Source: Amphiscolops sp. MND2022 (taxonomy: Eukaryota). From it: a stretch of DNA of 64,000 bases. The stretch covers positions 48,794,001-48,858,000 of the forward strand of contig OZ076413.1 of assembly GCA_964187785.1 (NCBI GenBank), written 5' to 3'. The notes beneath the pieces were generated by a model. It worked only from the letters and a program-made list of their open reading frames with translations, did not search any database and had not been told where the DNA came from. How positions within the stretch are numbered: position 1 is the stretch's first letter; each line of letters begins with the position of its first letter. The position numbers and the translations under genes were made by a program. Positions 16,831 to 54,874 of the stretch are shown in pieces.

Positions 16831-16831
16831 T

Positions 16832-19470: not shown

Positions 19471-20123
19471 AAAATTGATGAAAATGTAGAAAATTTTAAC
19501 ACTCATAAGAGCGCATCGATTTTCACACTAAGTTTTAGCACGAGTATGTTTCATGTACCGCAGCTATGTTTGGAAGATCATCGATAGTCTCTGAAGTATC
19601 ATGGAACGTTACTACCGAATCACTTTCTAAGGAAAAAACTTTTGCCTCCTGATTACGAGATATGCGAAAGTTGAGCGCTGAGTAAAAGTCTCCGTAACAT
19701 CCAAAACCGAACAAAGAATGAGTGTCTGGCTGATATAGTTTTTGTGTCATAGCCTGTGTAAGCCTAATTGTTGTGATAGACTTGTCAAGTAGCTTCAGAG
19801 ATGGCAATGATTTGAATTTGAGACAACTAGACGACATCTCTTACGCAGTTTTGTTGGTTTGTCGCTGCACTTGGGCTGCAAGAACCATCACAACCCGGTG
19901 AGATAACTCCATTTTCCTAATTTTAAATTTTTAACTCTTTTTAACAATTCAAGGTTTTGTTCTATATCGGAATGCTTCACTGTTGTGATTGTTTTTTGGA
20001 AGATTGGCACACACCCAAATGTGGTATTCCTGCAATTGGTTAGGTTTCGAGGTTGAGATGAGATGAACAACAACAAAACCTGCAACCCTCCGAAGTGTCT
20101 GAAGCCCTCAGGGTTGATAGACT
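19470..20123 (+). mobile_element. 3' continuation of the 14090-16830 LINE
   Basis: Reverse complement of ~9634-10290, the 3' part of the minus-strand copy. Confidence 0.8.
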
Positions 20124-26928: not shown

Positions 26929-27467
26929 TATAGGAAACCTATATGATTTTTTTGAAAATCAAAATAAAGAAAGAATTAAACGAAAGAAAAAAAAACGGAG
27001 AGATTTTATTGCCTAAAATTTGGCTGGCAATAAAATAATTTTTATGTGACACATCGTAAATTGAAGTTGACGGGCTCGACAACTTAGTCACATTGTACGG
27101 TCGGGGTTCGACAGTAAACGTTGATAACGTAACCACAGGCCAACGGGTTTCGACAGGTCTGTGTATAATCTTATAAAAAAACTCCCATAATGGTGGGACT
27201 CACCAACAGATTGTCTGATAAGGGGTATTTAAGGAAGTGTGGGAAGTTAGACATTTTGCTTTTGAGCTTTTCTGCGTTGAATCTTCCAACTTCCTTTCAA
27301 CCATCTTTCGCGGAAAATACACATTTCTCTATCTATCAATTTCAACCTCAACATATCTTCTAATTTAATTTTCAATATAAAACCTTCTTCAAAAAGCATT
27401 CCAGTCAACTCAACTTGTCCCGAAAACCCTTCAAATTCAACAAAACGTTCATCTCGGAACGTTACAG

Positions 27468-27480
27468 TGGTGACAAGGGA
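27468..27480 (+). promoter_or_regulatory. Putative primer-binding site
   Basis: TGGTGACAAGGGA begins 1 nt after the LTR end ...GTTACA; cognate tRNA not identified. Confidence 0.65.
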
Positions 27481-28037: not shown

Positions 28038-29039
28038 ATGGCTACGGGTACTTCCAAGATGTTATTACCGGAACCATTCACTGGCTCCAATGACATCGAA
28101 AGCTATACAACTCATTTTGAACTGTTAGCTAACCTCCAGAACTGGGTTAGAACAGAAACTCGTGAAGGAAATGACGTACAAATTGATGATCGGCCGCATT
28201 ATTTTGCATTACGTCTACAAAAAAAATCCGCGATTGATTTCTATCGAACTTTAACTGACGCTCAAAAAGCGAGTTATGACGAGTTGAAGAAAGCTTTCAG
28301 AACTCATTACACTGAGAAACCAGTGGTATTCCGAGGACAGCTTGCGAGGAGGACGCAAAGCCCGGGGGAGAAATTAACCGATTTTCTAGGCGACTTACAG
28401 GGCTTAGCGATGAAGGCCTACCCGGGTGAATCAAAAGAGATAAGAGATCACTTGGTAGTTAGGGGATTCCTTGAAGGAATCCGTAATAGTCAAGTGAGAC
28501 TAGATCTCAGAAAGACAATTGGAGACGCTGAAATGAACATAGAGAGCATATTAAAAACGGCTCTGCACCTTGAAGCCGTCACTAGAATTGAGGAAGAAGA
28601 AAAAGAACCCAGAGTCGCTGTGCTTCAACCCGCCAACAATGACAGATTGATTAATTCTGTGAATCAATTGATAGAGAAACTCTCTTTCTCGCGAGATTCG
28701 CAAAATCACATCCGCAACAGTTTTCCGGAAAGGAAACAATACCGAAGAAATAGTTCAAGAGATAGTGATAGAAACGGAAACGGGGGAGATCGAAGTCGAG
28801 GGGGACGAAGCCGAGGACGCGGAGGATATAAAGGCAGACAGCAAACGTCCGGTAGGTCGGAAAGAGGACAAATGAAATCCCAGTCTCGAGAGAGGGTTTC
28901 AAAATCGTATCGAGCGGGAATCGCAGGGGATAGTTGTCATAGATGCGGTCAACGTGGTCATTGGGCGAGAGAGTGTAGGAGTTGCTATAACTGCGGAAGC
29001 TCACAGCATTTCAAAAAAGACTGTCCCTTTTCAAACTAA
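28038..29039 (+). CDS. gag: Gag polyprotein, uninterrupted, with two CCHC zinc knuckles
   Basis: LLPEPFTGSNDIESYTTHFE..., RG-rich tract, CHRCGQRGHWAREC and CYNCGSSQHFKKDC. Confidence 0.9.
   Translation: MATGTSKMLLPEPFTGSNDIESYTTHFELLANLQNWVRTETREGNDVQIDDRPHYFALRLQKKSAIDFYRTLTDAQKASYDELKKAFRTHYTEKPVVFRGQLARRTQSPGEKLTDFLGDLQGLAMKAYPGESKEIRDHLVVRGFLEGIRNSQVRLDLRKTIGDAEMNIESILKTALHLEAVTRIEEEEKEPRVAVLQPANNDRLINSVNQLIEKLSFSRDSQNHIRNSFPERKQYRRNSSRDSDRNGNGGDRSRGGRSRGRGGYKGRQQTSGRSERGQMKSQSRERVSKSYRAGIAGDSCHRCGQRGHWARECRSCYNCGSSQHFKKDCPFSN
29030..29036 (+). promoter_or_regulatory. Degenerate -1 frameshift heptamer
   Basis: T TCA AAC immediately before the gag stop, one change from canonical T TTA AAC; the protease ORF is in the -1 frame. 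Confidence 0.45.
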
Positions 29040-29050
29040 AACAGGCCGAT

Positions 29051-32000
29051 GTGGAAATGGCCACACATTTGCATCGATCAACTTTGGCCATTATGGGAAT
29101 GACTGAACGGAGTCAACTTAATACACACGCTTTATACACCACCTTTTTGCTGCAAGGAAAACTTACAACTGCTTTAGTCGACAGTGGTAGTAGCATCTCA
29201 CTGATCAGCTGGTCATATTTGCAAACATTAACGTTCAGTGGTAAAACTGTAGAGTATAACGGGAAGATACTCACGGCTAATAACTCGCCTCTACTGATAA
29301 AGGGTAAAGTTGAACTGATCGTTCAGCTCGAAAAGTTTACACCCGAGTTTCGGGCCACATTTTCAGTCTCGGCATTGGATTTTTTCCCGTGCCTACTGGG
29401 ATTAGATTTCATGGTTCAAAACGATTGTGTACTGTACGCGAAACAACAGAAACTATTCTGAGGAAAAATAAACCGAAGCATGGAACTAAAGTCAAATGCT
29501 AGTTAAGAGGGGTCAACATTTTTGGTAGCCAAGTCGAACCAAGCAATTCCTGCACGAACTGAGACACTAGTGCAGTGTGAGTTGAGATACGAGGATGGTT
29601 CGAAGGCTACCAAGTTAGAGGGTATAGTAAACCCCCTCGAAACCTTCCAAGAAGCGACAGGATTATGGGTTGCTCAAGGCTTAGTGAACGATGACAACGG
29701 AACGTGTTGGGTAAGACTATTGAACATACACAATGAAAATATTGTTACTCATCGGGATACTAGGGTAGGTACACTAGAAACATTGGAGTTGGATGAACAT
29801 TCTTTAAAATTACAACGACAGACAGAAGAGAAAACGAAGCGCGAGGATTTCAGCTTCGAGAGACATGTTAATATAGAAAATAGAAATCTGTCAAAGGACC
29901 AGCTGCACCAAGTAATAACATTATGCAATAAGTACGAGACAATTTTCTCGAGACACTCAAATGATTTGGTTTTCAACAATCAGATTGAGCACCAAATCAA
30001 ACTGAAACCTGACGCTCAACCTTTTAGGTGAACCTACGGAAACATGAGTTTTGATAAAGCAATGAACAAAATCGTTGAAGGATTAGCCGAAGCCGATCTA
30101 ATTGCACCAACTCATTCCGATTGGGCGGCTCCAAGCATATTGGTCCCAATAAAGGACGGGTCTTTCCGATTGGTTGTTGACTACCGGGGTTTAACCAACA
30201 GATCGAAAAAACGTGTTGGCCGTTACCTCGAATACGCGATGTAATAGACTCTTTAGAAGGAAACATGTTCTTTTCGAGCATTGATTTAACATCCGGGTAT
30301 TTCCAAATGGCATTAAAAGACGATAGTCAAATCCTCACTGCTTTAATTACGCCGATGGGTCTATTCAAATGGAAACGACTAGCATCAGCTCCAGGGGCTT
30401 TTCAGAACCTCATGGATTTGGTGTTCAGCGGTCTATCCTACGACGTTGCCCTGGTATATCTAGATGACATAATCGTTTTTGGTAGAAACTTCGACGAACA
30501 TATTGAAAGACTGGAACTGGTTTTTTGCAGACTTCAGAAAAGTGGACTAAAAATCAAACGATCAAAGTGTAAATTTCTCCAGAAGAGAATACATTTCTTA
30601 GGACATGTCATCTCTGAAAATGGGGTTGAGGTGGGTGAAGAAAAAGTGAAGGCAGTTGAGAAAATGAAATCACCAACTTCTCTGAAAGAAGTTAGAGCAG
30701 TCCTTGGGTTGGTGGGTTTCTATAGAAAATTTATTCCGGGTTTCGGAAAGACTTCAGAACCTCTGTACAATCTTCTGAAGAAAGAAAACAAATTTGCGTG
30801 GACGAAAGAATGCGAACAGGATTTGCAAGAGCTGAAACGAAAATTGTTGTCGGCACCTATTTTTGGGTATCCGAACAATCGAGAAGAGTACACTCTAACT
30901 ACGGATGCTTCACTAACGGGAATTGGGGCAGTCCTAACACAGCAACAAGAAGGAATTGATCGAGTTTTTTCTTAATTAAACTCTGAATAAAAGCCAAGAA
31001 AACTATTCAGCAACTAAAAGGGAACACTTTGCCGTTGTCCATTTTACAAATCATTTCAAAACCTATGTCTTAGGTAGAAAATTTTCAATAGTTACCGATC
31101 ACAGAGCCTTGGCATGGCTCTACAGTTTCAAAGATCCAGAAGGGATGGTTGCGTGTTGGTTGGAAAAACTTGGACAAGTTGACTTCGAAATTAAACATAA
31201 AGCGGGTAGAAGCATCCCTCATGCAGATAGTTTATCGCGAGTACTGCCGGAGGAGGAAGATCCGATAACTGTCTATGTGGCAGCACTGACAGAAAACACG
31301 ACGATGGAGGAACATCCTGCGAACCCATGGATGTTAATCCAGAATACAGATCGTATTAGTATGCAAATGAAACAGCATGAAGATAACAACATAAAGAGGG
31401 TCCTAAAATGGATTGAAGAAAAGCAGAGACCTGATCGAAAAAACATGGACGGAGCTTCTAAGGAACTATGGAAATTTTGGGTGGACTTTAAGAACCTCCG
31501 GTTGATACAAGGACTTCTCTTCAGAACGAAAAAATTAGAAGACGGAGATCGTTGGGTACATCAGCTTATTGTTGCGGAGAATCAAATTTCCAACATACTA
31601 CCATTGCTGCACGAGTCTCCGTGCACAGGCCATTTCGGAATCGAAAAGACATATCAGAGAGCTCAAGAACGGTTCTTTTGGCCTGGGATGAAGTGAGACG
31701 TGAACAGCTGAGTTCAAAGCTGTGATAAATGCTCGAGGAGAAAAGGCACCCCTCAGAAACACAGACACAGTCTGAAAATGTGGAAACCGAGCCATCCTTT
31801 TTGGGAGGTATCATTAGATGTGATGGGTACTTTGCCAGAATCCAATGGCCAAAAGTACATTTTGTTGGTTGGTGATCAATTTAGTAAATGGTACGAAGCC
31901 GTTGCCATGGCAAATCAGGAAGCAAAAACAGTCGCACAAGCATTAGTCGATAACTGGATCACGAAATTCGGATGTCCCGTGAATTTACATAGTGATAAAG

Positions 32001-33086
32001 GAACAAATTTCATGTCGGAACTCTTTACAGAGTTGTGTCGGGTTTTGGGCATTGAACGGACATCCACCACTCCTTTTCATCCAGAAGGCAATGCGATGAT
32101 TGAAAGAACAAACCGGACAATTGAAGAAAGCTTATCGAAATACATCGATGATCACCAGAGCGATTGGACCTGTTATTTGCAACTGGTCATGATGGCATAT
32201 CGCTCGTCAATTCATGCAGTCACTAAACATAGTCCAAACTATCTTGTGATGGGAACACCATTGAGATTACCGATTGATGATTGTATGTACGAGACACGTC
32301 ATACCGAATTATTCCCGACTCCGAGTGATTTCATTTACAACACAAAGAGAGAACTGCAAAAAGCTCACCATCTTGTGAGATCGCACATGGAATTAGAACA
32401 AACACGACAGAAAACGTATTATGATTACCGGGCCTATGGCCTTGTCTACCTCGTGGGTGAACAAGTGCTTATATTCTTCCCTACAGTAAAGAAGGGACAA
32501 ACAAAGAAGTTCACCTCGTTCTTCAGAGGACCATACAAAATTCTCGAAATAATCAACGATCTGAATTTTCGTTTGTGCCACGAAGAGACCAGAAAAGTAA
32601 TCAAAGTACATTACGATCGAATGAAAAAGTACAAACCGCGGGAGCGAATCTTCACAAGAATGAGCGGAACCCAGGAACACACTGAAATTCAACAAACAGA
32701 CGAATCTGAGATCATCGATGACGACCTAATAGAGGTTGAGATTGAACAGATAGGTAAATAAAGGAAGAGGGAACGAGTAGCCAGATGAGACGCAAAAAAG
32801 TACCGAAATCGAACAAGGGCCTACTGCGAGCACAATCGAGTTAAAAGAATCTGATGGCGGAGCGAGAATGAAAAGTTGTGCAGAGGGAGTTAACAATGAA
32901 TCGGTTCCATTAAAAACGCCTCAAACAAAAGTTACGAAACCAAAAAACGAGAGAAGGCCTCCAATAGTGCCACAAAGGGAGAAAAGTACTCGTATCCGAT
33001 CAGTTCCGAAAAGATTCGGTGACTATTTTGTGTACAATGACGATACTTCTTTCGATGACAACGACGTTTTTGCTTCAGGAAATTAG
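29051..33086 (+). pseudogene. pol: Gypsy pol (PR, RT, RNase H, integrase) with several stops and frameshifts
   Basis: ALVDSGSS; VVDYRGL; VYLDDII; TTDASLTG; GHFG...C..C; LHSDKGTNF; GPYKI; tail STRIRSVPKRFGDY. Confidence 0.93.
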
Positions 33087-33111
33087 GAGCAGTCAAGAAC
33101 ACGGAAAAAGA

Positions 33112-35124
33112 ATGCAAATCCCAAGAGAAAACAGAGACACAGGTAACAAGATAATACTACTTTTGATTATTATTGCCGTATCGGTGCAAGAAGAAAACAT
33201 TAAAACTGTAGGATACGACTTCGAGCAAGTTGTAGGGACCACGGTTTACTCCTTAACTGATCAAAAAAATTGTACTCGAGGTTTGAGTGAGATGGCATCA
33301 GTACCACGTGGTTCAATGGTGTTCAGCGACAACGACGGTAGGCGGGAAATGAAAACTTGTCATTATCAAGCCTCGTATACGGTGTCGTACATGAAAAAAT
33401 CATCTGTTTATGATGATGGACTGTATCTACATGAAAAAATCAAAGATTTTAGCAACATTTTACTTGATTTCGATTGAAGTTTGTCGTCATGCGTGGGCAG
33501 CAAAACCTTTCATATTACCGGGATGCAGCAAAAGTCGGTTCCAATTGAAAAAGACTGATATAGAAGAAGTTGATAATTCTCAGCATGAGTTGTTTAAGAA
33601 CTTCGACTACTCAGCAAAATTTATGAAAGCTAAAGGAAAAGGGATTGGGTTTTCAACACCAATTGACTGGACAACACCAACAGGAGAGGTAATTGAAGCG
33701 TCTGTCCTCATCAATAGACGACTGACAATTGGAAAAGTGTTCACTCAGAAGCAACTTGGCGGAAGCAACTTCCATAAGTGGAACGACCCTCTCGGAAACC
33801 CTATAACAAGCGATGACATCGAAACTGATTTCGAAAAATATTTTGTGGTTTACTTGGTGACCAAGCCAAAAGAGTGCGACCTTTATAAACTCTTCGGCAT
33901 AAAGGGAAGAAACAATGTGATCAAATTAGTTGGTGAAAAAAACAGCATGCTAACGGGAATCGTTAGCAACAGGCAAGGCAGAAAGTTTGCACTGGAAATT
34001 CATAACCAGCTCGTTCCTTTGTGTAACCTTACAGTTCACCCAACCATCATGAAGGGAATTTTCTTTTCATTCGAAGATACAGATTTAGCAGTTAAAGTTA
34101 TGAACAACATTGACGAAGAATTGCTGCTACAGAGCAAAATTGATTTCTTACATGCCCAAGGGTTACAGAAAATGGAACGAGTTTGGCAGGAATTCATCTA
34201 CCAGAGATGTCGAATTCAAGATGTGGAGGCCAGGCTCAAATTATTGTTAATTTCAAATCTCGACAGTGCAATAATTGGGGACGAGATGGTGGGAACACAA
34301 ATTGAACGTGCGGGCGAGGTTGTATACTTACACAGATGTGCAAAAATGGAAATTACACTGGCAATTTTAGATTTCTGCACAGAAGAAATCCCTGTGAGAC
34401 TTGGCGATGGGAAAGGGTCCGTGATTAAAGTCATGAATCCAGATTCAAAGATTTTTTACAACAACTACACACTGACCGAATGTAACCCAGCGTACCCCAA
34501 TTTGTATCAGTTGCTGAACGGATCCTGGGTGACGTATGGAAAAACAACCGAACTAGCGCGAGTCGAACCTGTTGTTTTTCGGAACAACTCTTCACGGGAA
34601 CTAAGGCCACATGAATTTGTGCGTTTGAAAGGTAATGGGTTGTTCACAATGGAAGAAGCAACCGCGCGCGCTCCATCCGCCATAGCCGTACAACAGTAAC
34701 CGGTAGAGAGGTGTATCTGGGTTCAAAAGGCACGTACTCACATGAAACTTTGTTTCATCTCAATTTTCCAGAGCACCAGATTGGGTCCAGCTGGAGAGTA
34801 CTACAGTGGTTTCAATCGGTAAAGAAGGAAACGCTGTTTTTTTGGTGGATAGCGAGAGAGATAGCAGTAACTATACTGACAATCACGTTATTCGGAATGC
34901 TGGTTCGACTAGGTTTCAAAATATTTTTCATAATTCGATTGAAACAGTTAGGTACGAAAACGCGATTTGCTTTGCAACCGCTCAATCCGTTTTATGAATA
35001 CAATAAATTTTTATTAGATGTTAAGGAGCTCAAAAATCAACAACCCAGATCCTCAATGCTTCTAAATGATGCACAAAACTCATCAGAAACAAAATTGCAC
35101 GTTACACTAAATGACGAACAGTAA
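33112..35124 (+). pseudogene. Env-like type I membrane glycoprotein, two frameshifts; resembles chuvirus/gB-type class III fusion proteins
   Basis: Signal-like KIILLLIIIAVSV; Cys-spaced ectodomain AGEVVYLHRC...CTEEIPV...TECNPAYPNLYQLLNGSW; N-glycosylation sequons (NCT, NLT, NYT, NGS, NNS); C-terminal TM IAVTILTITLFGMLV. Located after pol. Family resemblance is from memory. Confidence 0.75.
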
Positions 35125-35162: not shown

Positions 35163-35606
35163 ATGGAAAACAACCGTATAAATGAATATGTATACTACTT
35201 GCCCGAACTTCATCAAATCAAATCGAAAGTGGCACCGGGCTTGTATCAAATTCAAGGATGTGTCTCGGGGATGCGAAAAAGTGCAACGGAAGACACCCTC
35301 AGTCCATCCAACATCAAGATGAGAGCGGACATTTCCACCACCCAACTTGTCGGGATTCGACAAGAGTTGGAGCTCACCAAGGCAGAAGTGAACAATCTGA
35401 AAGAGCGCCTATATTGTGAAGGAAGAAACGTGCATCAGGAGGTTGAAGATGCACGAAGGTATATCCACCAGCTTGAGATGGATGTAAATACACACAAAGA
35501 CAAGATAAGGCGACTCAGCGAAGATTTGGAAAAGCAAAGAACTCTTGTTAGAAGTATAACAACGGCGTTGTTAGTGATAAGTCGAATGATTGGTGAGATT
35601 AAATAA
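35163..35606 (+). CDS. Intact 147-aa accessory ORF with predicted coiled coil
   Basis: ATG to TAA; heptad-like IRQELELTKAEVNNLKERL...IHQLEMDVNTHKDKIRRLSEDLEKQ; inside the TSD-bounded element. Confidence 0.6.
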   Translation: MENNRINEYVYYLPELHQIKSKVAPGLYQIQGCVSGMRKSATEDTLSPSNIKMRADISTTQLVGIRQELELTKAEVNNLKERLYCEGRNVHQEVEDARRYIHQLEMDVNTHKDKIRRLSEDLEKQRTLVRSITTALLVISRMIGEIK

Positions 35607-35684
35607 GCCATTTGCTTTAATGGGTAAGGCGCTTGACTGGTAGCTAGATCTGTCTTGAGATGCAGGTTCGAGTCCTGTAATGGC
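35607..35684 (+). ncRNA. tRNA-like Pol III unit (identity unassigned, anticodon arm irregular)
   Basis: Acceptor-like GCCATT/AATGGC; A-box-like TGCTTTAATGG; T arm GCAGG-TTCGAGT-CCTGT with B box GGTTCGAGTCC; T5 run at 35687-35691. Confidence 0.6.
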
Positions 35685-35689
35685 TATTT

Positions 35690-36011
35690 TTATAGAAGTG
35701 AACGGGCGAAGGCTAAGGTCACTGAAAAACTCATCAAAGAAATAAAGCAAAAAACCTTGATTCAACATCCTTTCACCTTGTACGAGGTTCTTTTCGTCAA
35801 GGAAGATGCGGATGAAGAGACAATCAAACGGAATTACAAGAAATTAGCGTCTCTAACTCATCCTGATGTGAATGGCTGCGAAGAACAGTTTATATCTATC
35901 CACAGAGCTTATTCCGTACTTTCAAATAAAATGGCCAGAGAATTGTATAACTTGTTTGGACATGAGCGTGCTGAGGAAGAGTTGTCAAGACAATCAAGGA
36001 GGAGCGATTAA
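35690..36011 (+). CDS. J-domain (DnaJ/Hsp40-type) ORF; start codon unclear
   Basis: TLYEVLFVKEDADEETIKRNYKKLASLTHPDVNGCEEQFISIHRAYSVLSNKMARELYNLFG has the four-helix J-domain pattern with an intact HPD. Confidence 0.85.
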
Positions 36012-36470
36012 AACAAAGATATATTTGAAAAATTTTTTTTAAAAAATAAACAAAAAAGAGGGAACGGGGTTCGTTCCCTAACAAATGAAATACAAGCGAA
36101 CGGGTTGCGATCGATTGAGTAGAGATGGGTTACATCTCCTCAGGAAAAATTCAGACCGGGCTTCGCTCTGATAAAACTGGATCTAACTGCAATGAAAATA
36201 ACTGCAACAGCCTAATTGTTGTGATAAACTTATTAAATAGTTTCAGCTATTGTTTATTGTTGGTGTTGGTTGCCTCTTATTCAAAGATTTCTGTTTGAGT
36301 AGGCCGTCAGGGATTTTAGAGAGAGGCAGAAAGTGGACGAGCAAGTTTGCCCGAAAACCGACAAGAGACAGTGAAGCCCATAGTCTTCTCCAGACCATAG
36401 GTATCACGAGTCGTGTGCTTTTTCGTTTTTGTCTGGAGTAGTCTTACTTGCAAGCCCGGTCAATCCAAAT

Positions 36471-37578
36471 ATGGCTAAACAAAAAAGGGCAAAATCACAA
36501 TCCGAAAATCAAACAAAATCCGTTCCTTGCAATATCTGCGAAAAGGAAGTCTCTGAAGGCGTATGCTGTGATGGCTGTGAAAATTGGGCCCATGCCAAAT
36601 GTATCTTTCCTGGCCTCACATTCAGCATCCTGAAAAGTCCAAATTTAATCTACCGATGTGATGACTGCATCTCGCACAAGAATGTGAAGAACACTTTATC
36701 AGAGCTCAAAAGCAGTGTCGACGATCTGTCAAAAGCAATAGCACCCAGATTAGTTTTCATGCAGGAAAAATCGCAGAAGTTAGAGAATACAGTGAAAACG
36801 AACGCCACTTACGCTGAACGTGTCAAACAAGCGCCCAATCTGTCAAGCACAAGTCAGCCCCGTCAACAAAACACATGGGACGCCAAAAACTCCTTTGTTG
36901 TAAATAAAATCAGGAATTTCAATGACGCACGAGACTCGAGCAGCATTAAAACAGTCCTCAGTCACCACTTTCCACGAACTAAATTCCTGCACACCATGAA
37001 AACTGCGGATGGACGTATAATAGTAGAAACAGAAAATGAAAACACTGCCAAAGAAATAACTCAAAAATGGCCAGAAAACCTTTTTGGAGGCTCAGAGTGC
37101 AGAGAAACGAAAGCCAAGAGACCACTCAACCTCATCCTCAAAGGTGTACCATCACCAGATCACGTAAAAGACACGGGTGTTGATGAAAAAGATTTACAGG
37201 AGGAAATTTCAGGAAGTCCCAGGAAGTATCGTAACCCGCGTCAAAAGACAAGACAATACCCCATTGAAACTGCTGAAAATAACACTCGAAAATGAAGAAC
37301 AAGTGGAAGGTGTGCTCAAGTCTGGGGTGTGCATTGGAAATCTCTGGATTCAACCAGAGATTGAATACCGCCCACCCAAGGTTGTACAATGTTTCAAATG
37401 CCTCAAATTTGGGCATATTTCAGCTTGCTGCAAATCGAAGCACGAATACTGTAGCATTTGTTCGCAAGAAGGCCATAATCACAAGAACTGTACCAACAGG
37501 GAGAACGAAAAGTGTAAAATTGTAACGGAAGTCACGCTGCAGTTTCCAGGTACTGCCCAGTCAAGCAAGAGAAATTAG
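36471..37578 (+). pseudogene. LINE ORF1: PHD finger plus gag-like CCHC knuckles (one frameshift)
   Basis: CNIC...CCDGCENWAHAKC...YRCDDC; QCFKCLKFGHISAC; CSICSQEGHNHKNC. Confidence 0.85.
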
Positions 37579-37648
37579 AAGAATTATGCTCTCGAAAACA
37601 ATACCCGATTCCAAGCTGGTTGGCCAAACTAAAACATAACCGATCAAA

Positions 37649-40600
37649 ATGACGGACCACCGAACACTCTCCACACAGCACAAATCCTTGAAAGCGATGA
37701 CGGTCAACATAAATGGACTTTCAAAGCATTCCTATGAAATCGTCCACCAATATATGGTAACAAACAGCGTGCAGATCTCCTGCGTCACGGAGACGAAGAA
37801 ACAAAATACAGACGTTCTCGACTTTCCTGGATATTTAACCATACTAAACAATTCCTCTTCAAAACCTGGTCAATCAGGAGGAGTTCTTTTAGCTCTCGAT
37901 GTCAACATCAAGCCGAGCGTTTTTAATTTTGAAATCGAAATCCAGCACTCTACTTGGGCAATTTGTAACGTCTCGAGGAAAAGCATTCTAGTAGGGGGAG
38001 TTTACTGCCGTCCAAATAGTATAGAGAAATGAAAAGAGTTCTCTATGAAATTAGATCAGCAATAAAAAAGGAAAAGATTTGGGCGTGTCCAATTTTCTTC
38101 TCCTTGGCGACTTCAATGCAAGGCACCCTAGCTGGGGCGACAAAAACAATGCTCAAGGGGAAATTTTGAACGACTTCCTACAACAAGAAGAACTCATAGC
38201 TCTTAATGATGGGGAGCCCACATTCACATGCACAAATGGAAAAAGTGTAATCGACTTAGTTTTATGCAACGCCAATCTACACAGATTTTTTTGCGGCCTC
38301 GCAATAGACTATTACACTGAAATGTACACTGGCGCCCCAAACAGAGGCCATTACCAAGTTATTGCCACATTCGATATCACAGGAAACAGCAGATCCACTC
38401 ATGTAAAAGACTGAAAAAACCGACTGAAAAAAATGGAGGGAGACCCTAGAAAATTGCGTTCAATCGCGATGGCCTGAAATTGACGAATGCTATGATGCTA
38501 CATGTTTTTGGGGCATCCTGCTGCAATGTATCAGCGAAGCAGCCAATCTTACTATACCTCTCAAGCAAATCACTTCACACTCAAAGCCATAATTTAATGA
38601 AGAGTTGAAAATGCTTTCACTTCAACTCCGAAAAGCCAGGAAAAAAATGAAACTCAGATCGGACCCCATAAACACCTTCATTTATTAAACCCTCAAACGA
38701 CAATTTCGGACTACCTTGATGAAGTCAAAAGCTGAGCAATATAAAACTTGTGCGGAAACCCTAAACGCCAGCAAGGGCTCAGATTTCTGGAAAGCCAAAA
38801 ATTTGTTTACTCGTACAAGAGAATTAATACCAATGGGATGTCTTATTTCAAATGGCAAAGTTCCAGATAGTGACGCTGATAAGTTTGAACATCTTCGCAC
38901 TACGTTTTTCTCCGACAGTCATCTTCACGGAAATATGTTTGACGAATCTTGGCTGAGAAATGTCGAAGACAAACTCACGGCAAATCTCCATCCGGATTAT
39001 TTGAACCACCGAGCATACAGATAAGAGAAGAAGAGCTTGACAACGCTCTGAAGGAATCTCAAACAAGCAAGAAGTCCTCCGACCCAGGTGGCATACAACC
39101 ACTCATGCTTCGTCAAACCGGAACTTTCTTCAAAATTGCCTGCCTCAAGTTTTTTAACCTCTGCTTACATGCAGGCACCTACATTTGGAATTTAGGTAAA
39201 GTCATTTTCCTCCGAAAACCTCACAAAGAAGACTATAAAATCGCAAACAGTTACAGACCAATTACACTCACTTCCTACGTAGGAAAGCTGTTTGAACGCA
39301 TAATAGAGAGACGATTGAGAAATGACTTGGAGGCGAAAGGGCTGATCGATGACAGCCAAGAAGGATTCAGAAAGCGGAGAGGCACTGGTAGATGCATTTA
39401 TAAACTCTTAGACAATATTCAAAATATTATTGAGCAAGGAAAAGTTGCGGCTGCCCTTTTCATCGACCTCGAGAAAGCATTCGACTAGATTTGGATTGAC
39501 GGTCTCGAGTACAAACTCCGTGAAGCAGGAATAAACAGCTACATTTTGAACATCATTGACCATTATCTCCAAAACAGAAACGTTTACATCGAAATAGGCA
39601 AGAACCAATCAGAAAGCTTCAAGCCAGAAGTTGGCCTCCCTCAAGGAAGCATTCTCTCCCCAATCTTATTTATCTTTTACATTGCAGAAATGTTCCAAGA
39701 ATGCAAAGGTAAAACTGAAAAGTACGCTGAGGACGCCACACATGTTTCAGCAGGTGACTCGATTGAAGAAGCTCTGTCGCATCTTCAAAAAGATTGCGAA
39801 GAAATTACAAAATGGATTGGAAAGTGGCGTCTTAAAATCTCGGGGCCGAAAACAGAAGTTGTCATCTTTTCAAGTATCCGTGAAGAAATCCGAGAACCTA
39901 CAAAGAATATAGTGTTGCAAGGAAACACAATAAAGTTCGCGAGAGAGTCAACAGCGCTCGGTATCACAGTCGATAACAAATTGAATTTTTGAGCACAATT
40001 CGAGAAATGTTCAAGAAAAACAGGAGAAGCCATGGGAGTTTTGGAACCTCTTGTACAGAATCAATTCATCACGCCTTTCACCATTTTGAAACTTATGAAT
40101 TGCGTGGTGATCCCTGTGTGGACATACCTGAGTCATATTTGGGCCAATCCGACTGCATTCAGAACAGGCAGCTTATGGTACAAGATATTATCGAAATCTT
40201 CAAATACCAAATACAAACACGAGCTCACCAAAATGGAATACATATGTAGTCAATTTCCAATCGATCTTGAGATTCAATTATCACAAGCTAAGTTTGCCCA
40301 TAAAAACGGTTTTGACTCTGACCAGTGTTCAAGAGCCTTATCAGACTCCGATAGCAAAGTATCGAGGTCACTACATTCCAGCCTCCGAGGTTTTGCAAGA
40401 TTTTCAGGTATCGCACCGGGTGAAAAATACTCAAAACGAATCTGTGAACACTATAGAATCGAATTATGGAATCGCCGATTGAGAAATATATTGCTAGAAT
40501 TCCCTCAAATAGAATCGACAGAACCTTTGATACCAAGATATTTCAGCAAACATGCTACCAAATTGATAATGGAGATGCTCACAAACCAATGCAATCTACG

Positions 40601-41340
40601 AGACTTTCAATACCAATTATCAAGAACATCGTCACCACTCTGTATCTGCAACCACGAGGAGACGTCTACGCATTTTATCTTTTATTGCAGTTTTTACAAT
40701 AACTTGGGAAAGGAGCACATAAAGTTTGGGTCATTTGAAGGGGAAATGGTCATTTCGCCTAATGCCATTTCGCCTAAAGTCATTTCGCCTAACGTGTTTG
40801 GTCACTTCGCCTAATTTTTTTAGGCAAAACGTCTTTTACTTTGGTCACTTCGCCTATTTTTTTTTCAGAAACGTGAAAAACACATGAAATTGGAAAACAA
40901 TTAAATCGTTTTAGATCTAAAACTGAAAAGTGATATAAAATAGAAAACGTGCCTCGGATATGTCCCATTCCTTCTAGTGCCCCGCGGCCCCTTGGGGCCG
41001 CTTATGTTCCATCTTGCTAAGCGAGGTCGAACAGGAGCAAAGACCTAGCGGGAACGGAGATCGCGAAGCGATCGTAGTGGGAGCTGGTCTTTGCGACGGT
41101 GAGGGCGAGTGTGCATACACCGCATATGCCCCACATTTTGATATTTTCGCTTTCAGAAAGCCTTTTTCGAAACATGATTATTTAGACGTTATTCCCGTTT
41201 GATCATTTCGCCTAATTTTCTTAGGCGAAATGACTCAACTAAATTTTTAGGCGAAATGGCATTAGGCGAAATGACCTGCATCCATTTGAAGATTTAATAA
41301 GAAAAAGAAGCCATAGTGATATGATTAACCTGTTGGACTT
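37649..41340 (+). pseudogene. LINE ORF2: APE endonuclease, RT, C-terminal Cys/His motif
   Basis: VNINGL...CVTET, LLGDFNARH, IDLVL; YRPITLTSYVGK, FIDLEKAFD, GLPQGSILSP; CICNHEETSTHFIFYC. Interrupted by the MITE at 40741. Confidence 0.9.
40741..41283. mobile_element. MITE with GG termini and 8-bp TSD, inserted in LINE ORF2
   Basis: TSD ATTTGAAG at 40733-40740 and 41284-41291; TIR core GGTCATTTCGCCTAATGCCATTTCGCCTAA at both ends. Confidence 0.9.
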
Positions 41341-41603
41341 TATCAAAAAATCGTCCCGTTTCTGTAATTTGTGAGAACTAAAACTCACCTGATGCAAAGA
41401 AATCATGATCATTTGTAAATTTCATATATTTGTATAATCATGGCCTGCAAAGAGAGGCATTCTTTCCTGGAATTTATATATATATAACTGCAATGAACTA
41501 TACGAACGAGCGTCGTTCTCGAAAGAGATGGGTATCATCACGCGAAAATATATACTCCGAAAATCCTTCAAATTCAACAAAACGTTCATCTCGGAACGTA
41601 ACA

Positions 41604-46260: not shown

Positions 46261-46283
46261 AATCAATGGCTATGATGTCAGAG

Positions 46284-46661
46284 TGTCAGAGACTGTGGTC
46301 GAGCGGCTATTATAATTTAGTTTTAGAGACATTTCAGTTTTTAAGGAACTTGTTTTATTCGAATGTTCAGTTGGGTCAATTCTCCTTTGCTCAACTTTCT
46401 AACTTTAGAAAAAATACAATTTGGGTTGAAATATTAGTTTTATCATGATAAGAAAGAAAGTTATATTGAGATGAGATAATTTAGCATAGTTGAATCAGTG
46501 TAACAAGTTCTCTGTCTCTCTTTCTTCTGGTCCGCTCGTCCACCTTCTTACTTCGTCCAGTGTGTTCGATTGTCATTGGCTGTCTCTTTTAATTGGCTGT
46601 AACCTGTACTTCAACGAAATTTTGTTATTATAATACAGTTATCCATGACCTTGTCACGACA
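46284..46661 (-). repeat. 3' LTR
   Basis: Preceded on the minus strand by a polypurine tract; ~9 mismatches to the 5' LTR by manual count. Confidence 0.9.
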
Positions 46662-47577
46662 CTCCCCGCTTTTGAGAAGAGGGAATGTCCCGGGGTAGTT
46701 GGAATGTTTCAGGTGGTGATGACGAGACGGCGGCTTGAAACTGAAGAAAGACGAATCTACCAAATACAACCAAGCGAAGCCTACACAGATGCCCAAAAAA
46801 AGAAAAGTTACATATGACATAAAGAAAGAAAGCGAGAAGCCTCAAATGGAGGGAAAGAGAAAAAACGGAGCAAGAAATGTTTCCTGCATGAATGTTTCCT
46901 GCATGTTTCCTGTTATTCATGAAAAGAATGAAAAGTAAAAAGGCCAGTTACAAAAGGGGGCCAGTGAATCAGAAAAGTTGGCTTATTGACACAAGCAAAA
47001 GCCAGGCAATAACAGCATGTGGTTATTTGTACCGGATGGTCAACAAGGCGGCACGTGTCGACGTGCGCACTACGTAAATTGTTTATTTGGGGTGCAAGAT
47101 AAAGAAGTGATTTTACTAAATGAGACTTGTGCGGATCGAGCGGCACAAAAAGAGCAGAGAGCGGTAAACAATATAATAATCGATATATGCGGGTGCATAA
47201 AGAAGTGGGTATTCGTCCACTTAATGAGCAAAGAACAAAATATGGAAAGTATACAAGTAAAAGTAGCAGCAATCTCCAAGGCGAAAAGTGTACAGTAAAA
47301 GCAAATATGGATGATGGCAGCAACTGACTGTGACTCAGCCAGCTACTCAAGAAACTTGTGGCGCAGATTTCCAATTATGGAACGTTGGAGGGGTACAAAA
47401 ATGTACTTGATGAGTGAGGCACACAAAGTTTCTGATCCTTAAAAGGAAGGGGAAGTGACCTTTACAGGAAAGGTCCTTACAAGGCCGTTTCTTCAGTGTA
47501 TGAAGAGCAACGTTGGCGAGAGGGGGGAGGAGCGGTGAGAAAGCAGCACTCACGCCAGGGAAAGGTTTCGTCGCCAT

Positions 47578-48071
47578 TCAATGATTTATGAAATTGAGAT
47601 GGGACATGAAAAGTAGGCTGAAGCTGGATTTTATGTGTTTGTTTATTGTCTTTGTCTTTAAAACATGAGTAAAGGGCATGAATTTACGGAGTTTATGGTA
47701 GCGGTGAAACAAGTACATAAAAAGCAAATGCAAAAGCTTTGATATTATAAAGCTACCAAGTCCAATGAAAAATGTCATCTTTAGTGTGGAAGTTTGTGCA
47801 AGGCGTTCTTGGAATGGCTGTTTCAGTTCAATCATTCTCAGTGCTATCGGTTCCGCAATTTTACGAAGGGCGTCTGGTGATTGGGCATGAAGCAAAGAAA
47901 AGGAAAGGACGAAAAGTCCAAGACAGATGATGTGTTTGTGAAAGTACTGTTCTCAATTTGTAATGATGGAATATATACATGTGAGAAGTTCAAACAATTG
48001 GATCGGATGTTTGGTGTTCGTGTAGAGAGCATATAGAATTGTCGTTTAAGGCAAAATAGTGGCGTGTGCAA
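47578..48071 (-). pseudogene. Env-like C-terminal remnant with TM segment (duplicated at 50818-51311)
   Basis: MTFFIGLGSFIISKLLHLLFMYLF hydrophobic segment followed by a basic tail, lying between protease and the 3' LTR. Confidence 0.45.
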
Positions 48072-48719
48072 TGAAAATATGAACTTTCGAAAGATTCAAT
48101 TTGTGACCAAGTCAACGTGTCGGTGTGCTAGCAAGAAATGACCATAAAGAGTCAATCAATTATATTCGTGATCACAAATAATTTGCGCAAGAAAAGTCAG
48201 CCAAAATTGGTGATGGAATGATCAATAGGCGGTGCACTTCGGATTTGTAATATTTAAACCGGATGGTGATGCATACCATGGTCAAAGAAGCAAGTGAGGT
48301 GTTTTTGAGAAAATCATTCGTTTGAAAAACTTTTGTTCTAAGGTAGTTTGCTATTTTTTTGCTCGTCAATTTTATTTCTTCGTTTGATCGTAAACATCTA
48401 CTACTGTCACAGAACATCTAAAGTAAGTCAAGTCTAATGTTGTATTCGAGTCTTTTAGGGTCAAAAAATGAATTGCCCGTCGGCAAAGTTTGAAGAAGGA
48501 AACTTGTTGCTTCGCGTCAAATTTTACAATGGCACTGGTTACACAAAGACCAGTCTGTTTTTCAAACCGTGGGTTAGGTTCCACGATTGCTACTGTTCCT
48601 TCAGGAAAGGAATCTGTAGAAAGTACATTGGATAATTTCGGACGTATTCGGTTTGATAGAGTTTGAGCAGCATGTTAGAAAAGATTTTTCGTAGTAGTTG
48701 GTGAACTGATTTTGCCATC

Positions 48720-50387
48720 TTATTGAACCCGTTCAGTTAGTTGTATGGTCATGTTTGGCAATTTTAGAGTTCGGGTTTTCGGATGAATCAGAATATCGTG
48801 TTTTTCAAAAAACGGAAAACCTAAAATGGTCTGATTCATTGTTTCCATAAGAATGAAAGTTTCGGTAAAAGTCTCATTCGCTATTTTGAAAGAGGCTTCA
48901 AAAGTGCCATGTGTGGTTATAGATGCACAGGTGGCCACTTTTACTGTTGAAGGCTGAGGTTTATAGTTGGTTATACTTTTTGGACATAAACGTTGAAGTT
49001 TGTTAAAAATAGAAAGAGGCATGGCGCTTGAGAAAGCACCAGTATCTATAAGGGCTTTAACTGGAAAAGAAAAGTGGAGTGGTACAGAAAATGAAGTGCG
49101 AGGCTTGGAAGATAGAACGTTAATGAAGTTAAAAGGAGTACAGTTAGGAATAATAGGTATATTAGAAGTATGGGCATTGTGTGGCTTACCTAGTTGTTTT
49201 GATAGATGTTCGACTGGTTGCCATCATTTTGTGGTGTCCATGATTGTGGCATTTGGTTGATGGATGTCATCTGGGTTTGTTGTTGCTGGAACTGCTGTGT
49301 GGGCACAAACTAGGCGTTGGAAAATTGGTTGTATGGCAAGGCTGGTACATAGGTTGGTTTTGGGCGAAACCAACATTGTGAGATGAGATGGCCCAATTTA
49401 CTGCAGTAGTTGCGATACTTTTGTCCAGATTGGGCAAAGTGTGGGTTGTTATTGTTAATATGCCAATTTTTTCCACGTGGTTGCCAATTTGGGTTTCGGG
49501 GTCGGAAGTTTTGATGGTTGTTATTGTTTTTCCAATTTTGCTGATTATTTTTCCAAATTTGCTGATTATTATTTTGTTTGCTGATTGTTTTCTCGAGGGC
49601 CAAAGTTTTTGTTCCAGTTCTGACGATTTTTGTTGTTGTTATTGTTATTATTGTTGTTGTTGTTTTTGGTAGCTGCAAGTTGATTGATTGTAGGTTGAAG
49701 TGTTTTATTCAACTCTTGAAGTTCTGTTGAGAGTTTTCCGGTTTCTTCTTTCAGTGTGTCCTGTGCTTTGGACAACTCGTGTATGCCAGTCAGTAGTTGT
49801 TTTGTTGAAAAGTTACTGACCTTTTTAAATGCTGTATCGTCGTCCTCAGGGTAGAGGCGGTCAACGATAAGACGGCTGGAAACCTTGGTGCAGAGTTCAT
49901 CTATTGCCATATCTTCGGGTTGGGTCATTAGGAAACGCTTCATCTTGATGTGCATTGATCTGCGAGTTCGCTCTTGAGCACGGTTTTCAGCATTTACTGC
50001 AGGTCTTCCTCCTCCTGCAGCTCGGGCTTGAATGTCCGGGTACGCTTCGAGTGCCAGTCTTTGCAGCTCAGTGAGAAAGTCTTGCGGACTTTCGTCAGAG
50101 ACTTTCATTTTGCGTGAATTGAATAGAATTTTTTGCATTTGTATTCTCTGATCGTTTTGGTAATGATTTCGTAGGGCAGCTACGGCGGCATCGTAGTCGT
50201 TTCGCACAGCAGCTTCTTGTTGGTCAAAGAAGGTTAAGGCACCTCCTTTAAGATGAAGGTGTAAGTATCGATGACGTTGATAATTAGAAATGCCTGCTAC
50301 TTGGGTGCAACTCTCGAGTTGGCGAAGAAATTCGTTTTCAGTTCCCTTGAAGGGTTGAAGATTTACAAAAGGTTGTATGGCAGCCAT
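48720..50387 (-). pseudogene. Gag and aspartic protease (duplicated at 51961-53628; gag again at 56560-57640)
   Basis: FKGTENEFLRQLES...LHLKGGALTFF; Asn/Gln-rich tract; degenerate knuckle; DTG motif at ~49040. Confidence 0.85.
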
Positions 50388-53300
50388 ATTTGTAGAATTT
50401 GATAGTAGATTTTAGAAAGAAAATTTTATTGTGAAGATTTGGTATTTCAAGCGAGTTTTGTTGCAGTCTTGCTGTTTCAGAGAGAAGAGATATGAGCTGG
50501 TGGTGAATGGAAGATTGAAGGTTCTAGCGAGCAAATTTGTGGAGAATAAATCCTGTCACCGTGTCAGAGACTGTGGTCGAGCGGCTATTATAATTTAGTT
50601 TTAGAGACATTTCAGTTTTTAAGGAACTTGTTTTATTCGAATGTACTTGATGAGTGAGGCACACAAAGTTTCTGATCCTTAAAAGGAAGGGGAAGTGACA
50701 TTTACAGGAAAGGTCCTCACAAGGCCGTTTCTTCAGTGTATGAAGAGCAACGTTGGCGAGAGGGGGGAGGAGCGGTGAGAAAGCAGCACTCACGCCAGGG
50801 AAAGGTTTCGTCGCCATTCAATGATTTATGAAATTGAGATGGGACATGAAAAGTAGGCTGAAGCTGGATTTTATGTGTTTGTTTATTGTCTTTGTCTTTA
50901 AAACATGAGTAAAGGGCATGAATTTACGGAGTTTATGGTAGCGGTGAAACAAGTACATAAAAAGCAAATGCAAAAGCTTTGATATTATAAAGCTACCAAG
51001 TCCAATGAAAAATGTCATCTTTAGTGTGGAAGTTTCTGCAAGGCGTTCTTGGAATTGCTGTTTCAGTTCAATCATTCTCAGTGCTATCGGTTCCGCAATT
51101 TTACGAAGGGCGTCTGGTGATTGGGCATGAAGCAAAGAAAAGGAAAGGACGAAAAGTCCAAGACAGATGATGTGTTTGTGAAAGTACTGTTCTCAATTTG
51201 TAATGATGGAATATATACATGTGAGAAGTTCAAACAATTGGATCGGATGTTTGGTGTTCGTGTAGAGAGCATATAGAATTGTCGTTTAAGGCAAAATAGT
51301 GGCGTGTGCAATGAAAATATGAACTTTCGAAAGATTCAATTTGTGACCAAGTCAACGTGTCGGTGTGCTAGCAAGAAATGACCATAAAGAGTCAATCAAT
51401 TATATTCGTGATCACAAATAATTTGCGCAAGAAAAGTCAGCCAAAATTGGTGATGGAATGATCAATAGGCGGTGCACTTCGGATTTGTAATATTTAAACC
51501 GGATGGTGATGCATACCATGGTCAAAGAAGCAAGTGAGGTGTTTTTGAGAAAATCATTCGTTTGAAAAACTTTTGTTCTAAGGTAGTTTGCTATTTTTTT
51601 TGCTCGTCAATTTTATTTCTTCGTTTGATCGTAAACATCTACTACTGTCACAGAACATCTAAAGTAAGTCAAGTCTAATGTTGTAATCGAGTCTTTTAGG
51701 GTCAAAAAATGAATTGCCCGTCGGCAAAGTTTGAAGAAGGAAACTTGTTGCTTCGCGTGAAATTTTACAATGGCACTGGTTACACAAAGACCAGTCTGTT
51801 TTTCAAACCGTGGGTTAGGTTCCACGATTGCTACTGTTCCTTCAGGAAAGGAATCTGTAGAAAGTACATTGGATAATTTCGGACGTATTCGGTTTGATAG
51901 AGTTTGAGCAGCATGTTAGAAAAGATTTTTCGTAGTAGTTGGTGAACTGATTTTGCCATCTTATTGAACCCGTTCAGTTAGTTGTATGGTCATGTTTGAC
52001 AATTTTAGAGTTCGGGTTTTCGGATGAATCAGAATATCGTGTTTTTCAAAAAACGGAAAACCTAAAATGGTCTGATTCATTGTTTCCATAAGAATGAAAG
52101 TTTCGGTAAAAGTCTCATTCGCTATTTTGAAAGAGGCTTCAAAAGTGCCATGTGTGGTTATAGATGCACAGGTGGCCACTTTTACTGTTGAAGGCTGAGG
52201 TTTATAGTTGGTTATACTTTTTGGACATAAACGTTGAAGTTTGTTAAAAATAGAAAGAGGCATGGCGCTTGAGAAAGCACCAGTATCTATAAGGGCTTTA
52301 ACTGGAAAAGAAAAGTGGAGTGGTACAGAAAATGAAGTGCGAGGCTTGGAAGATAGAACGTTAATGAAGTTAAAAGGAGTACAGTTAGGAATAATAGGTA
52401 TATTAGAAGTATGGGCATTGTGTGGCTTACCTAGTTGTTTTGATAGATGTTCGACTGGTTGCCATCATTTTGTGGTGTCCATGATTGTGGCATTTGGTTG
52501 ATGGATGTCATCTGGGTTTGTTGTTGCTGGAACTGCTGTGTGGGCACAAACTAGGCGTTGGAAAATTGGTTGTATGGCAAGGCTGGTACATAGGTTGGTT
52601 TTGGGCGAAACCAACATTGTGAGATGAGATGGCCCAATTTACTGCAGTAGTTGCGATACTTTTGTCCAGATTGGGCAAAGTGTGGGTTGTTATTGTTAAT
52701 ATGCCAATTTTTTCCACGTGGTTGCCAATTTGGGTTTCGGGGTCGGAAGTTTTGATGGTTGTTATTGTTTTTCCAATTTTGCTGATTATTTTTCCAAATT
52801 TGCTGATTATTATTTTGTTTGCTGATTGTTTTCTCGAGGGCCAAAGTTTTTGTTCCAGTTCTGACGATTTTTGTTGTTGTTATTGTTATTATTGTTGTTG
52901 TTGTTTTTGGTAGCTGCAAGTTGATTGATTGTAGGTTGAAGTGTTTTATTCAACTCTTGAAGTTCTGTTGAGAGTTTTCCGGTTTCTTCTTTCAGTGTGT
53001 CCTGTGCTTTGGACAACTCGTGTATGCCAGTCAGTAGTTGTTTTGTTGAAAAGTTACTGACCTTTTTAAATGCTGTATCGTCGTCCTCAGGGTAGAGGCG
53101 GTCAACGATAAGACGGCTGGAAACCTTGGTGCAGAGTTCATCTATTGCCATATCTTCGGGTTGGGTCATTAGGAAACGCTTCATCTTGATGTGCATTGAT
53201 CTGCGAGTTCGCTCTTGAGCACGGTTTTCAGCATTTACTGCAGGTCTTCCTCCTCCTGCAGCTCGGGCTTGAATGTCCGGGTACGCTTCGAGTGCCAGTC

Positions 53301-53802
53301 TTTGCAGCTCAGTGAGAAAGTCTTGCGGACTTTCGTCAGAGACTTTCATTTTGCGTGAATTGAATAGAATTTTTTGCATTTGTATTCTCTGATCGTTTTG
53401 GTAATGATTTCGTAGGGCAGCTACGGCGGCATCGTAGTCGTTTCGCACAGCAGCTTCTTGTTGGTCAAAGAAGGTTAAGGCACCTCCTTTAAGATGAAGG
53501 TGTAAGTATCGATGACGTTGATAATTAGAAATGCCTGCTACTTGGGTGCAACTCTCGAGTTGGCGAAGAAATTCGTTTTCAGTTCCCTTGAAGGGTTGAA
53601 GATTTACAAAAGGTTGTATGGCAGCCATATTTGTAGAATTTGATAGTAGATTTTAGAAAGAAAATTTTATTGTGAAGATTTGGTATTTCAAGCGAGTTTT
53701 GTTGCAGTCTTGCTGTTTCAGAGAGAAGAGATATGAGCTGGTGGTGAATGGAAGATTGAAGGTTCTAGCGAGCAAATTTGTGGAGAATAAATCCTGTCAC
53801 CG

Positions 53803-54180
53803 TGTCAGAGACTGTGGTCGAGCGGCTATTATAATTTAGTTTTAGAGACATTTCAGTTTTTAAGGAACTTGTTTTATTCGAATGTTCAGTTGGGTCAATT
53901 CTCCTTTGCTCAACTTTCTAACTTTAGAAAAAATACAATTTGGGTTGAAAGATTAGTTTTATCATGATAAGAAAGAAAGTTATACTGAGATGAGATAATT
54001 TAGCATAGTTGAATCAGTGTAACAAGTTCTCTGTCTCTCTTTCTTCTTGTCCGCTCGTCCACCTTCTTACTTCGTCCAGCGTGTTCGATTGTCATTGGCT
54101 GGCTCTTTTAATTGGCTGTAACCTGTACTTCAACGAAATTTTGTTATTGTAATACAGTTATCCATTACTTTGTCATGACA
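53803..54180 (-). repeat. 5' LTR
   Basis: Followed on the minus strand by the PBS-like site; right flank is the CAGAG TSD. Confidence 0.9.
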
Positions 54181-54874
54181 CAGAGCTTTAGCGTTTCTTT
54201 TGGCGTACTTGAAAGCATGGTCTAGTAGTGCGACATCATATTGCAGTCCCATCTACTTTATGTAATTTTTGGAATCCCAGTTAAGCAGGCTTCAGAAGTA
54301 TACTGTTTGTGATTTTTGCGCTATTTTTGTTGGGCAATCTTATCCAGAGCGAGGTTAGTTATCGGTCGACAGTTCTGGCTTATCAGCTTTCTGCGTCTTT
54401 GAGATCAGAGTCGTGCGTCCACACTTCCATTGTTTTGGAATTTTTCTGGCTATTAGACAAGCATTGAGGACAATTAGTATGTCGCTCTTCGGAATCTGTT
54501 TGAGATTGTTTAGTTTGACGCATCAGAGCCAAGTGCTGTGTTCTTGTTAAACGTATTCCGTTATTTTGTGATCTCTTCAAGCTTTATGGCTTACTCAATG
54601 GACAGATGGCTTTTGGTGTTATGCTTCTTTTCTTACATTTTTCCAGTAGGATTCGAGGTTGTGTGGTTTGTTACTAGCGGAGAACACACTCTGCTCGAAT
54701 TCCTTGTTTATGATTTTATTTTGTCGTAAAAGTTCTTGAATTTCTGAAAAATTTTACTTGTTTTTGAAACTCAAAGAGAAGTTCGATTAAAAAAATTTCT
54801 GAAAAGTCGCATAGTGCTAAAAAGATATCAAAGGGGGCCCTCTGGTCTTTCATCTACTTTTGCAAACTTTAAAA

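Follow-up and report, generated by a model that had tools for sequence, protein, structure and literature searches.

A Helenus-type TRIM family in Amphiscolops sp. whose primer-binding site matches the 3' end of the tRNA-like sequence in its own LTR

The tRNA-like feature in the window, by which we mean the whole 64,000-nt stretch of DNA analysed here, almost certainly belongs to a solo LTR, of which it forms the tRNA-like core, and this LTR is what remains of a non-coding Helenus-type TRIM of 425 bp. Such a nested insertion is ordinary in itself. In the family behind it, however, the PBS, TGGTAGCCATTACA, is complementary without mismatch over 14 nt to the 3' end of the LTR tRNA, namely its final 11 nt followed by a non-encoded CCA, and this self-matching PBS is new, the Helenus-type TRIM kind itself being already known. 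Judging from the sequence, we find it slightly more probable than its opposite that the tRNA-like RNA of the LTR acts in trans as the TRIM's own primer of reverse transcription. The fuller reading, for which we see an even chance, is that the LTR of this animal TRIM would serve as promoter and as repeat and would also encode a private tRNA mimic, which would prime the element's own reverse transcription after CCA addition by the host.

The fold lies on the plus strand at 35606-35686 and matches the Rfam tRNA model RF00005 with 37.8 bits (E 3.6e-05, gathering threshold 29), which bears out the tRNA-like structure proposed in a first-pass annotation of the sequence. ARAGORN at default settings made no tRNA call in the 64-kb window, and the free fold of the region was not more stable than shuffled sequences (z -0.95). 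The region consists of a 7-bp acceptor stem, a D arm, an unpaired anticodon stem, a long variable region, a T arm and a discriminator A at 35686, with CCA not encoded. The first base of the acceptor stem is the final A of a TAA codon, at 35606 and not at 35607 as annotated before. An A-box-like motif is found at 35613-35623 by the consensus given in PMC10886601 (section 3.5), and in the family alignment the window copy carries a few private substitutions, one of them inside this motif. The B box GGTTCGAGTCC at 35665-35675, which is part of the Rfam match, and the T arm are both intact, in agreement with the annotation. When CCA is added to the 11-nt 3' tail at 35676-35686, the result is fully complementary to the family PBS; the solo copy itself has no PBS. 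The irregular anticodon region pointed out earlier is real in that the stem does not pair, but this is a trait of the entire TRIM family and not peculiar to the window copy.

The solo LTR occupies 35555-35694 (140 bp, plus strand) between GAAG target-site duplications at 35551-35554 and 35695-35698; both are read from the sequence and from comparison with empty host copies, which have GAAG once at the site. Compared with the family LTR of 167 bp (TATAAC...GTTATA) it lacks 27 bp of U5. The T5 run at 35687-35691, annotated as a terminator, is indeed present, but it was produced by the deletion, which joined the family T4 to the right end of the LTR; TTTTCTCA stands at the T-run site in 105 of the 125 LTR copies that are near-full. 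The window copy, which lacks a PBS and has a damaged U5, would be a dead recombination product.

The insertion of this LTR supplied a stop codon and split a coiled-coil/J-domain ORF of an env-bearing Gypsy element. The part with the N-terminal domain and the coiled coil, the latter judged from weak Pfam coiled-coil matches only, lies at 35163-35554, and the J-domain part with its HPD motif (Pfam DnaJ, E 5.5e-17) at 35695-36011, both on the plus strand. As the inserted LTR (start 35555) contributes the final 16 codons of the apparent coiled-coil ORF together with its TAA, the adjacency of fold and stop codon, to which the first-pass annotation attached meaning, has none. The insertion site is without the insert in 15 of 16 close Gypsy copies (one of these with a small unrelated duplication), and the sixteenth is without the region. 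A single stop-free frame runs across the site in 12 of the 16, the N-terminal/coiled-coil part and the J domain are both whole and in one frame in 6, and the ORF is likewise fused in three of three more distant copies. The earlier suggestion that a SINE head had split a once-fused gene was thus right about the mobile tRNA-derived insert and the split, and wrong about the kind of insert, which is the solo LTR of a TRIM. A secondary effect of the insert on this one dead Gypsy copy is possible.

The host Gypsy (plus strand) has its 5' LTR at 26929-27466 and a PBS at 27468-27479 with a 12-nt match to host tRNA-Leu(TAG) plus CCA. Its gag, protease, RT, RNase H and integrase (28038-32761) and its env-like region (33037-35124; Pfam Monjiviricetes_fusion, PF24664, E 9.5e-16) are each broken into several frames. 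A remnant of the 3' LTR at 41557-41603 is followed by a TAAT target-site duplication, other repeats and a deletion lying between 36200 and the remnant; among the insertions, at about 36200-40800, is a LINE-like element recognised from translations only (zinc-finger ORF1, endonuclease-RT ORF2). The window copy is without the second J ORF described below and most of the 3' LTR. The LTR starts with TATAGG instead of TG and ends with TACA (GTTACA), and target-site duplications are 4 bp. In one copy (L143) the PBS is lengthened from 12 to 18 nt of the tRNA-Leu complement, which suggests that a copied stretch of primer can become fixed in this Gypsy group.

In the Gypsy family, two accessory ORFs stand in tandem between env and the 3' LTR. 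Each encodes about 250 aa, in which a novel N-terminal domain is followed by a coiled coil and, at the C terminus, by an HPD-containing J domain. The two paralogues (window 35163-36011; the second at L147:922-1677) are about 37-41% alike. A J-domain search of the genome gave 73 clusters. The N-terminal 150 aa of the second J protein have only two relatives among 5.8 billion proteins, and the ESM Atlas held no match to this protein above 0.78. Retrotransposons with a captured chuvirus-type glycoprotein are described in passages of PMC7642597 and PMC10084718, and the env-like ORF of the Monjiviricetes fusion family resembles theirs; compared with those accounts, the host Gypsy additionally has the two J-domain ORFs. 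Our literature search for Gypsy elements with J-domain accessory ORFs gave no paper evidently describing such.

To characterise the TRIM family, positions 35500-35800 were searched against the element's own genome (1.07 Gb), the best 40 of 642 candidates being scored. At least 68 matches were found, all but the window itself on about 35555-35690 (a few partial), at 90-98% identity, and many of them in tandem with a period of about 258 bp. The B box and tail occur together exactly 271 times, hence at least 271 LTR copies exist, and the copies outside the host element that the first-pass annotation had proposed to count are numerous. A complete unit has an LTR of 167 bp, a 1-nt spacer, a PBS starting with TGG, a 91-bp internal part, a PPT and a second LTR (167 + 91 + 167 = 425 bp), the purine tract abutting the 3' LTR. 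LTR starts are mostly TATA, with TG in only 7 of 58. Intact LTRs score 44-46 bits with the Rfam tRNA model, and from the A box, B box and T4 a Pol III unit seems plausible for the family. In 21 two-LTR units the identity between the LTRs is 81-99%. After leaving out 17 incomplete chains of 63, the 46 complete units show a 4-bp target-site duplication that is exact in 23 and has at most one mismatch in 30; exact duplications of 3, 5 or 6 bp were found in none. Copies occur as solo LTRs, as two-LTR units and in arrays of up to 25 LTRs, the longest array (L137, G000:C11:55288500-55297500) having 25 LTRs in tandem with one 4-bp target-site duplication around the whole array.

Other classes of element were considered and rejected. 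A Tc1/mariner-type MITE does not fit, as TATA belongs to the element and the target-site duplications are varied 4-mers and not a fixed TA. A tRNA-derived SINE would have a single head, a LINE-like or simple-repeat tail and a target-site duplication of variable length; an LTR pair and a fixed 4-bp duplication were found. A decoding tRNA gene is contradicted by non-standard anticodon-stem pairs, and ARAGORN calls waver between Ser and Leu with invented introns.

Two counts of J-domain Gypsy loci with a TRIM copy within 10 kb gave 4 of 73 and 4 of 67, where about 0.1 would be expected. An unrelated repeat clusters with both, having TRIMs nearby in 4 of 11 cases (0.39 expected) and itself lying near J-domain Gypsy loci in 2 of 82 (0.18 expected); we therefore regard the clustering as unspecific and reject targeting of the J-domain Gypsy by the TRIM, shared insertion hot spots being sufficient.

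In most respects the family is an ordinary Helenus (TRIMp3) as described by Kojima (2024, PMC10886601). It is a non-coding TRIM below 1 kb with two LTRs, its 425 bp falling among the 314-580 of most bivalve, fish, brachiopod and nemertean families; each LTR holds a tRNA-like sequence with A and B boxes and a T run, which is Kojima's definition; a PBS follows the 5' LTR and a PPT precedes the 3' LTR; the target-site duplication is 4 bp as in the animal families; and solo LTRs, tandem arrays and a few hundred LTRs are found. Three differences stand out. The termini are mostly TATA...TATA here and TG...CA in Helenus (PMC10886601). Of the host tRNAs found, none fits the PBS over more than 10 nt, whereas the animal PBSs shown in Fig. 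S2 of PMC10886601 are all of host-tRNA types, a host-tRNA-matching PBS being a described property of Helenus that stands outside the definition. Finally, the PBS here complements the end of the LTR's own tRNA, which section 3.6 of PMC10886601 found in no family. A term search of the supplement to that paper did not find short motifs of the present family as such.

Two further kinds of element share some of these traits. Cassandra TRIMs, with 5S rRNA in the LTR, are similar in having a Pol III-type promoter inside the LTR and tandem arrays, but are 5S-derived and plant-specific, and the passages on them in PMC10886601 and PMC7215508 mention no PBS self-match. Tandem arrays are also given as common in ordinary TRIMs in passages of PMC10886601 and PMC6934838. 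The tRNA-derived SINEs (SINE2) likewise have a tRNA-like head with A and B boxes and a high copy number, whereas the TRIM has direct-repeat LTRs, a PBS, a PPT, inverted termini, fixed 4-bp target-site duplications and no LINE-type tail.

The self-match is carried by the family and not by single copies. A pattern for the LTR-PBS junction gave 144 matches, and among the 100 listed at least 68 have exactly TGGTAGCCATTACA (counted by eye). When each PBS was compared with the tail of its own upstream LTR, all 14 positions matched in 40 of 69 units and 13 or 14 in 62 of 69. The chance of an 11-nt templated match in register is about 1e-7. Neither tail nor PBS has a shared variant at 8% or above (58 LTRs, 36 with the internal part), and such variants are present in the D loop, U3 and the remaining internal part; the low variation is nevertheless not specific, as the anticodon arm and variable region are equally invariant in the 58 LTRs. 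No covariation of PBS with tail was found among subfamilies, the variants in 153 LTRs being private or array-specific; complementary changes in both occur in one unit (L164), too little to count. A search for a second self-matching family gave eight matches, two from the TRIM family and six not self-complementary.

A self-match of this kind may also be a structural hairpin or the product of DNA template switching. A fold-back rearrangement at the LTR-PBS junction is seen in one unit (L119). In another (L125/L127, about 1500-1547, minus strand), one duplicated old element, the PBS carries a 47-nt insert that for the most part repeats, in reverse, the 3' half of the LTR tRNA plus CCA, and a second PBS follows this insert. 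Since primer read-through and DNA fold-back explain this insert equally well, we do not count it as evidence.

We compared the PBS with the tRNAs of the host. The LTR's own tRNA pairs with it at 14 of 14 positions (-24.4 kcal/mol), the main form of host Ile(AAT) at 9 (-14.3 kcal/mol), its U72 isodecoder at 10, all contiguous (-18.9 kcal/mol), host iMet at 7 (-10.7 kcal/mol) and host Leu(TAG) at 6 (-4.7 kcal/mol). An independent gene ending in this 11-nt tail was sought with three exclusion patterns, and the 13, 12 and 8 matches that they returned were all TRIM copies or fragments; these patterns require a standard T loop and would miss some genes. The same approach recovered two tRNA-Leu(TAG) genes fitting the 12-nt PBS of the host Gypsy among 6 matches, and a looser pattern (29 matches) revealed a tRNA-Ile(AAT) gene array. 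A vertebrate-type iMet pattern had no match, and a looser one gave a gene array with 442 matches. The genome-wide Rfam tRNA search, in which the best 63 of about 118,000 candidates were scored, returned Lys and Arg arrays that are uninformative here. The host's tRNA genes form long tandem arrays of a single type (iMet with its 442 matches, Ile-AAT, Lys-TTT and Arg-TCT) with many anticodon and stem variants (L187-L198, L201-L208, L051-L080).

These comparisons bear directly on the alternative that survives best, that the family is an ordinary Helenus in which the LTR tRNA serves as Pol III promoter only and priming at a site of 9-10 nt falls to host tRNA-Ile(AAT), chiefly to its U72 isodecoders; the longer self-match would then stem from shared ancestry and a past template switch, or from a hairpin covering the PBS. 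We think this possible, if rather unlikely. It agrees with Kojima's model for all described Helenus families (PMC10886601), the Ile(AAT) gene array exists, its U72 form makes 10 contiguous pairs, the Ile(AAT) forms pairing at 9-10 of the first 10 nt, and a cis hairpin over the PBS is predicted. Ile(AAT) is moreover abundant and heavily used as primer in this genome, as it is in bivalve Helenus, and Fig. S2 of PMC10886601 has it as a known primer of Helenus and Gypsy. However, the main Ile tRNA is mismatched at position 5, and at all five positions where the tail differs from it the PBS agrees with the LTR tail. Genuine Ile-type sites in this genome look different: many LTR families (L220-L249) carry a perfect 18-nt tRNA-Ile(AAT) PBS directly at the LTR end, with 541 genome sites against 12 for the control and 18 of 18 positions kept without a spacer in 28 of 30 fetched, the pattern demanding 13 nt so that shorter Ile sites were outside its reach. 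A primer of 9-10 nt would also have to open an intramolecular hairpin of at least 11 pairs, and the body of the LTR tRNA aligns better with Leu(TAG) (score 54), the closest of the three host tRNAs aligned, than with Ile (score 41). Among the 100 listed of the 144 junction matches no PBS of Ile or iMet type was seen (counted by eye), which is not decisive because Ty1 and Ty3 inherit their PBS strictly according to passages in PMC7472051. Tails ending in GGCTA make up 13 of 84, an over-estimate as loci were picked for that variant.

A second alternative is self-priming in cis. Fission-yeast Tf1 primes with the 5' end of its own mRNA and uses no tRNA fold and no CCA. The TRIM transcript might in a similar way fold its own LTR tail onto the PBS, with the primer provided by a cut at the tRNA 3' end or by the processed 3' end of the full-length RNA; we hold this to be improbable. 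In a local fold of the 5' region the PBS pairs with the tail of the 5' LTR with a probability of 0.95, and additional pairing between the internal region and the T arm is possible (-13.1 kcal/mol, 109 of 2000 shuffles as good), but in the fold of the whole unit the pairing of PBS and tail is lost. The tandem arrays of up to 25 LTRs hint at unusual replication, a point weakened by their frequency in ordinary TRIMs. A cut in the 5' LTR would probably lose the repeated region required in first-strand transfer, and the PBS retains the TGG that pairs only with an added CCA. The likeness to Tf1, named as self-priming in a passage of PMC6934838, is that the primer would come from the element's own RNA; the candidate primer here differs in being the 3' end of a tRNA mimic.

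That the host initiator tRNA-Met primes through the 7-nt core TGGTAGC is very improbable: the first 7 nt pair and 442 iMet-type gene matches exist, but the match is just 7 of 14 (-10.7 kcal/mol) and a second pairing site is not above shuffles (21 of 100 as good). The first-pass proposal that the fold punctuates the host element's RNA at the end of its ORF, as a dedicated RNase P/Z signal, Pol III unit or insulator, has next to no chance and a mascRNA-like mimic in the host transcript is rejected, for although a genuine tRNA-like fold abuts the stop codon, that codon belongs to the insert, which is flanked by target-site duplications, dispersed in hundreds of independently inserted copies and absent in 16 of 16 close host copies, 15 with an empty site; independent insertion of a high-copy element is an outcome that the annotation had itself named as refuting its proposal, and for an insulator role we see no support.

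For priming in trans by the LTR tRNA we envisage the following course. Pol III would transcribe the LTR tRNA from its A and B boxes, and short transcripts would stop at T4, be trimmed by RNase P and Z and receive CCA, while read-through transcripts from the 5' to the 3' LTR would provide the template. A Gypsy helper would package both RNAs. The CCA-tailed RNA would then anneal to the PBS, with TGG as the toehold from which the cis fold-back is displaced, and prime minus-strand DNA. A closed acceptor stem, as seen in the present LTR, is also found by eye in LTRs of the PMC10886601 supplement that use host primers.

The host Gypsy is a plausible helper by sequence, because it shares with the TRIM the TATA start, the 4-bp target-site duplication, the 1-nt spacer and the abutting PPT, and because the body of the LTR tRNA is closest to its Leu primer. 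The Gypsy itself uses tRNA-Leu, with a PBS of only 12 nt, and no common sequence was seen beyond the shared features. No coding element with the PBS of the TRIM was found among 19 matches.

The usual view is that LTR retroelements borrow a host tRNA as primer and that, in rare cases, the element's mRNA folds back to prime itself. A self-made tRNA primer was tested by Kojima (2024, PMC10886601) and rejected for all Helenus families of that study. In our literature search, which covered mainly openly accessible papers, this negative statement was the only one on a self-encoded tRNA primer. The present TRIM family, young and numerous, is a clean counter-case to it in sequence. If the LTR tRNA does act as primer, it would be a third way of priming for LTR retroelements, and each solo LTR would be a primer gene. 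The TRIM would be independent of the host's choice of tRNA and of the primer type of its helper, a route by which a non-autonomous element could exploit helpers with other primer types, and it might possibly evade silencing by host 3' tRNA fragments. If not, what is left is a new Helenus family with a hairpin covering its PBS.

Elsewhere in the window we observed a large nested palindrome at 9634-20123, centred near 13,850, and at 46276-60338 a tandem repeat of 3.2-4.0 kb with three copies of a 272-aa ORF.
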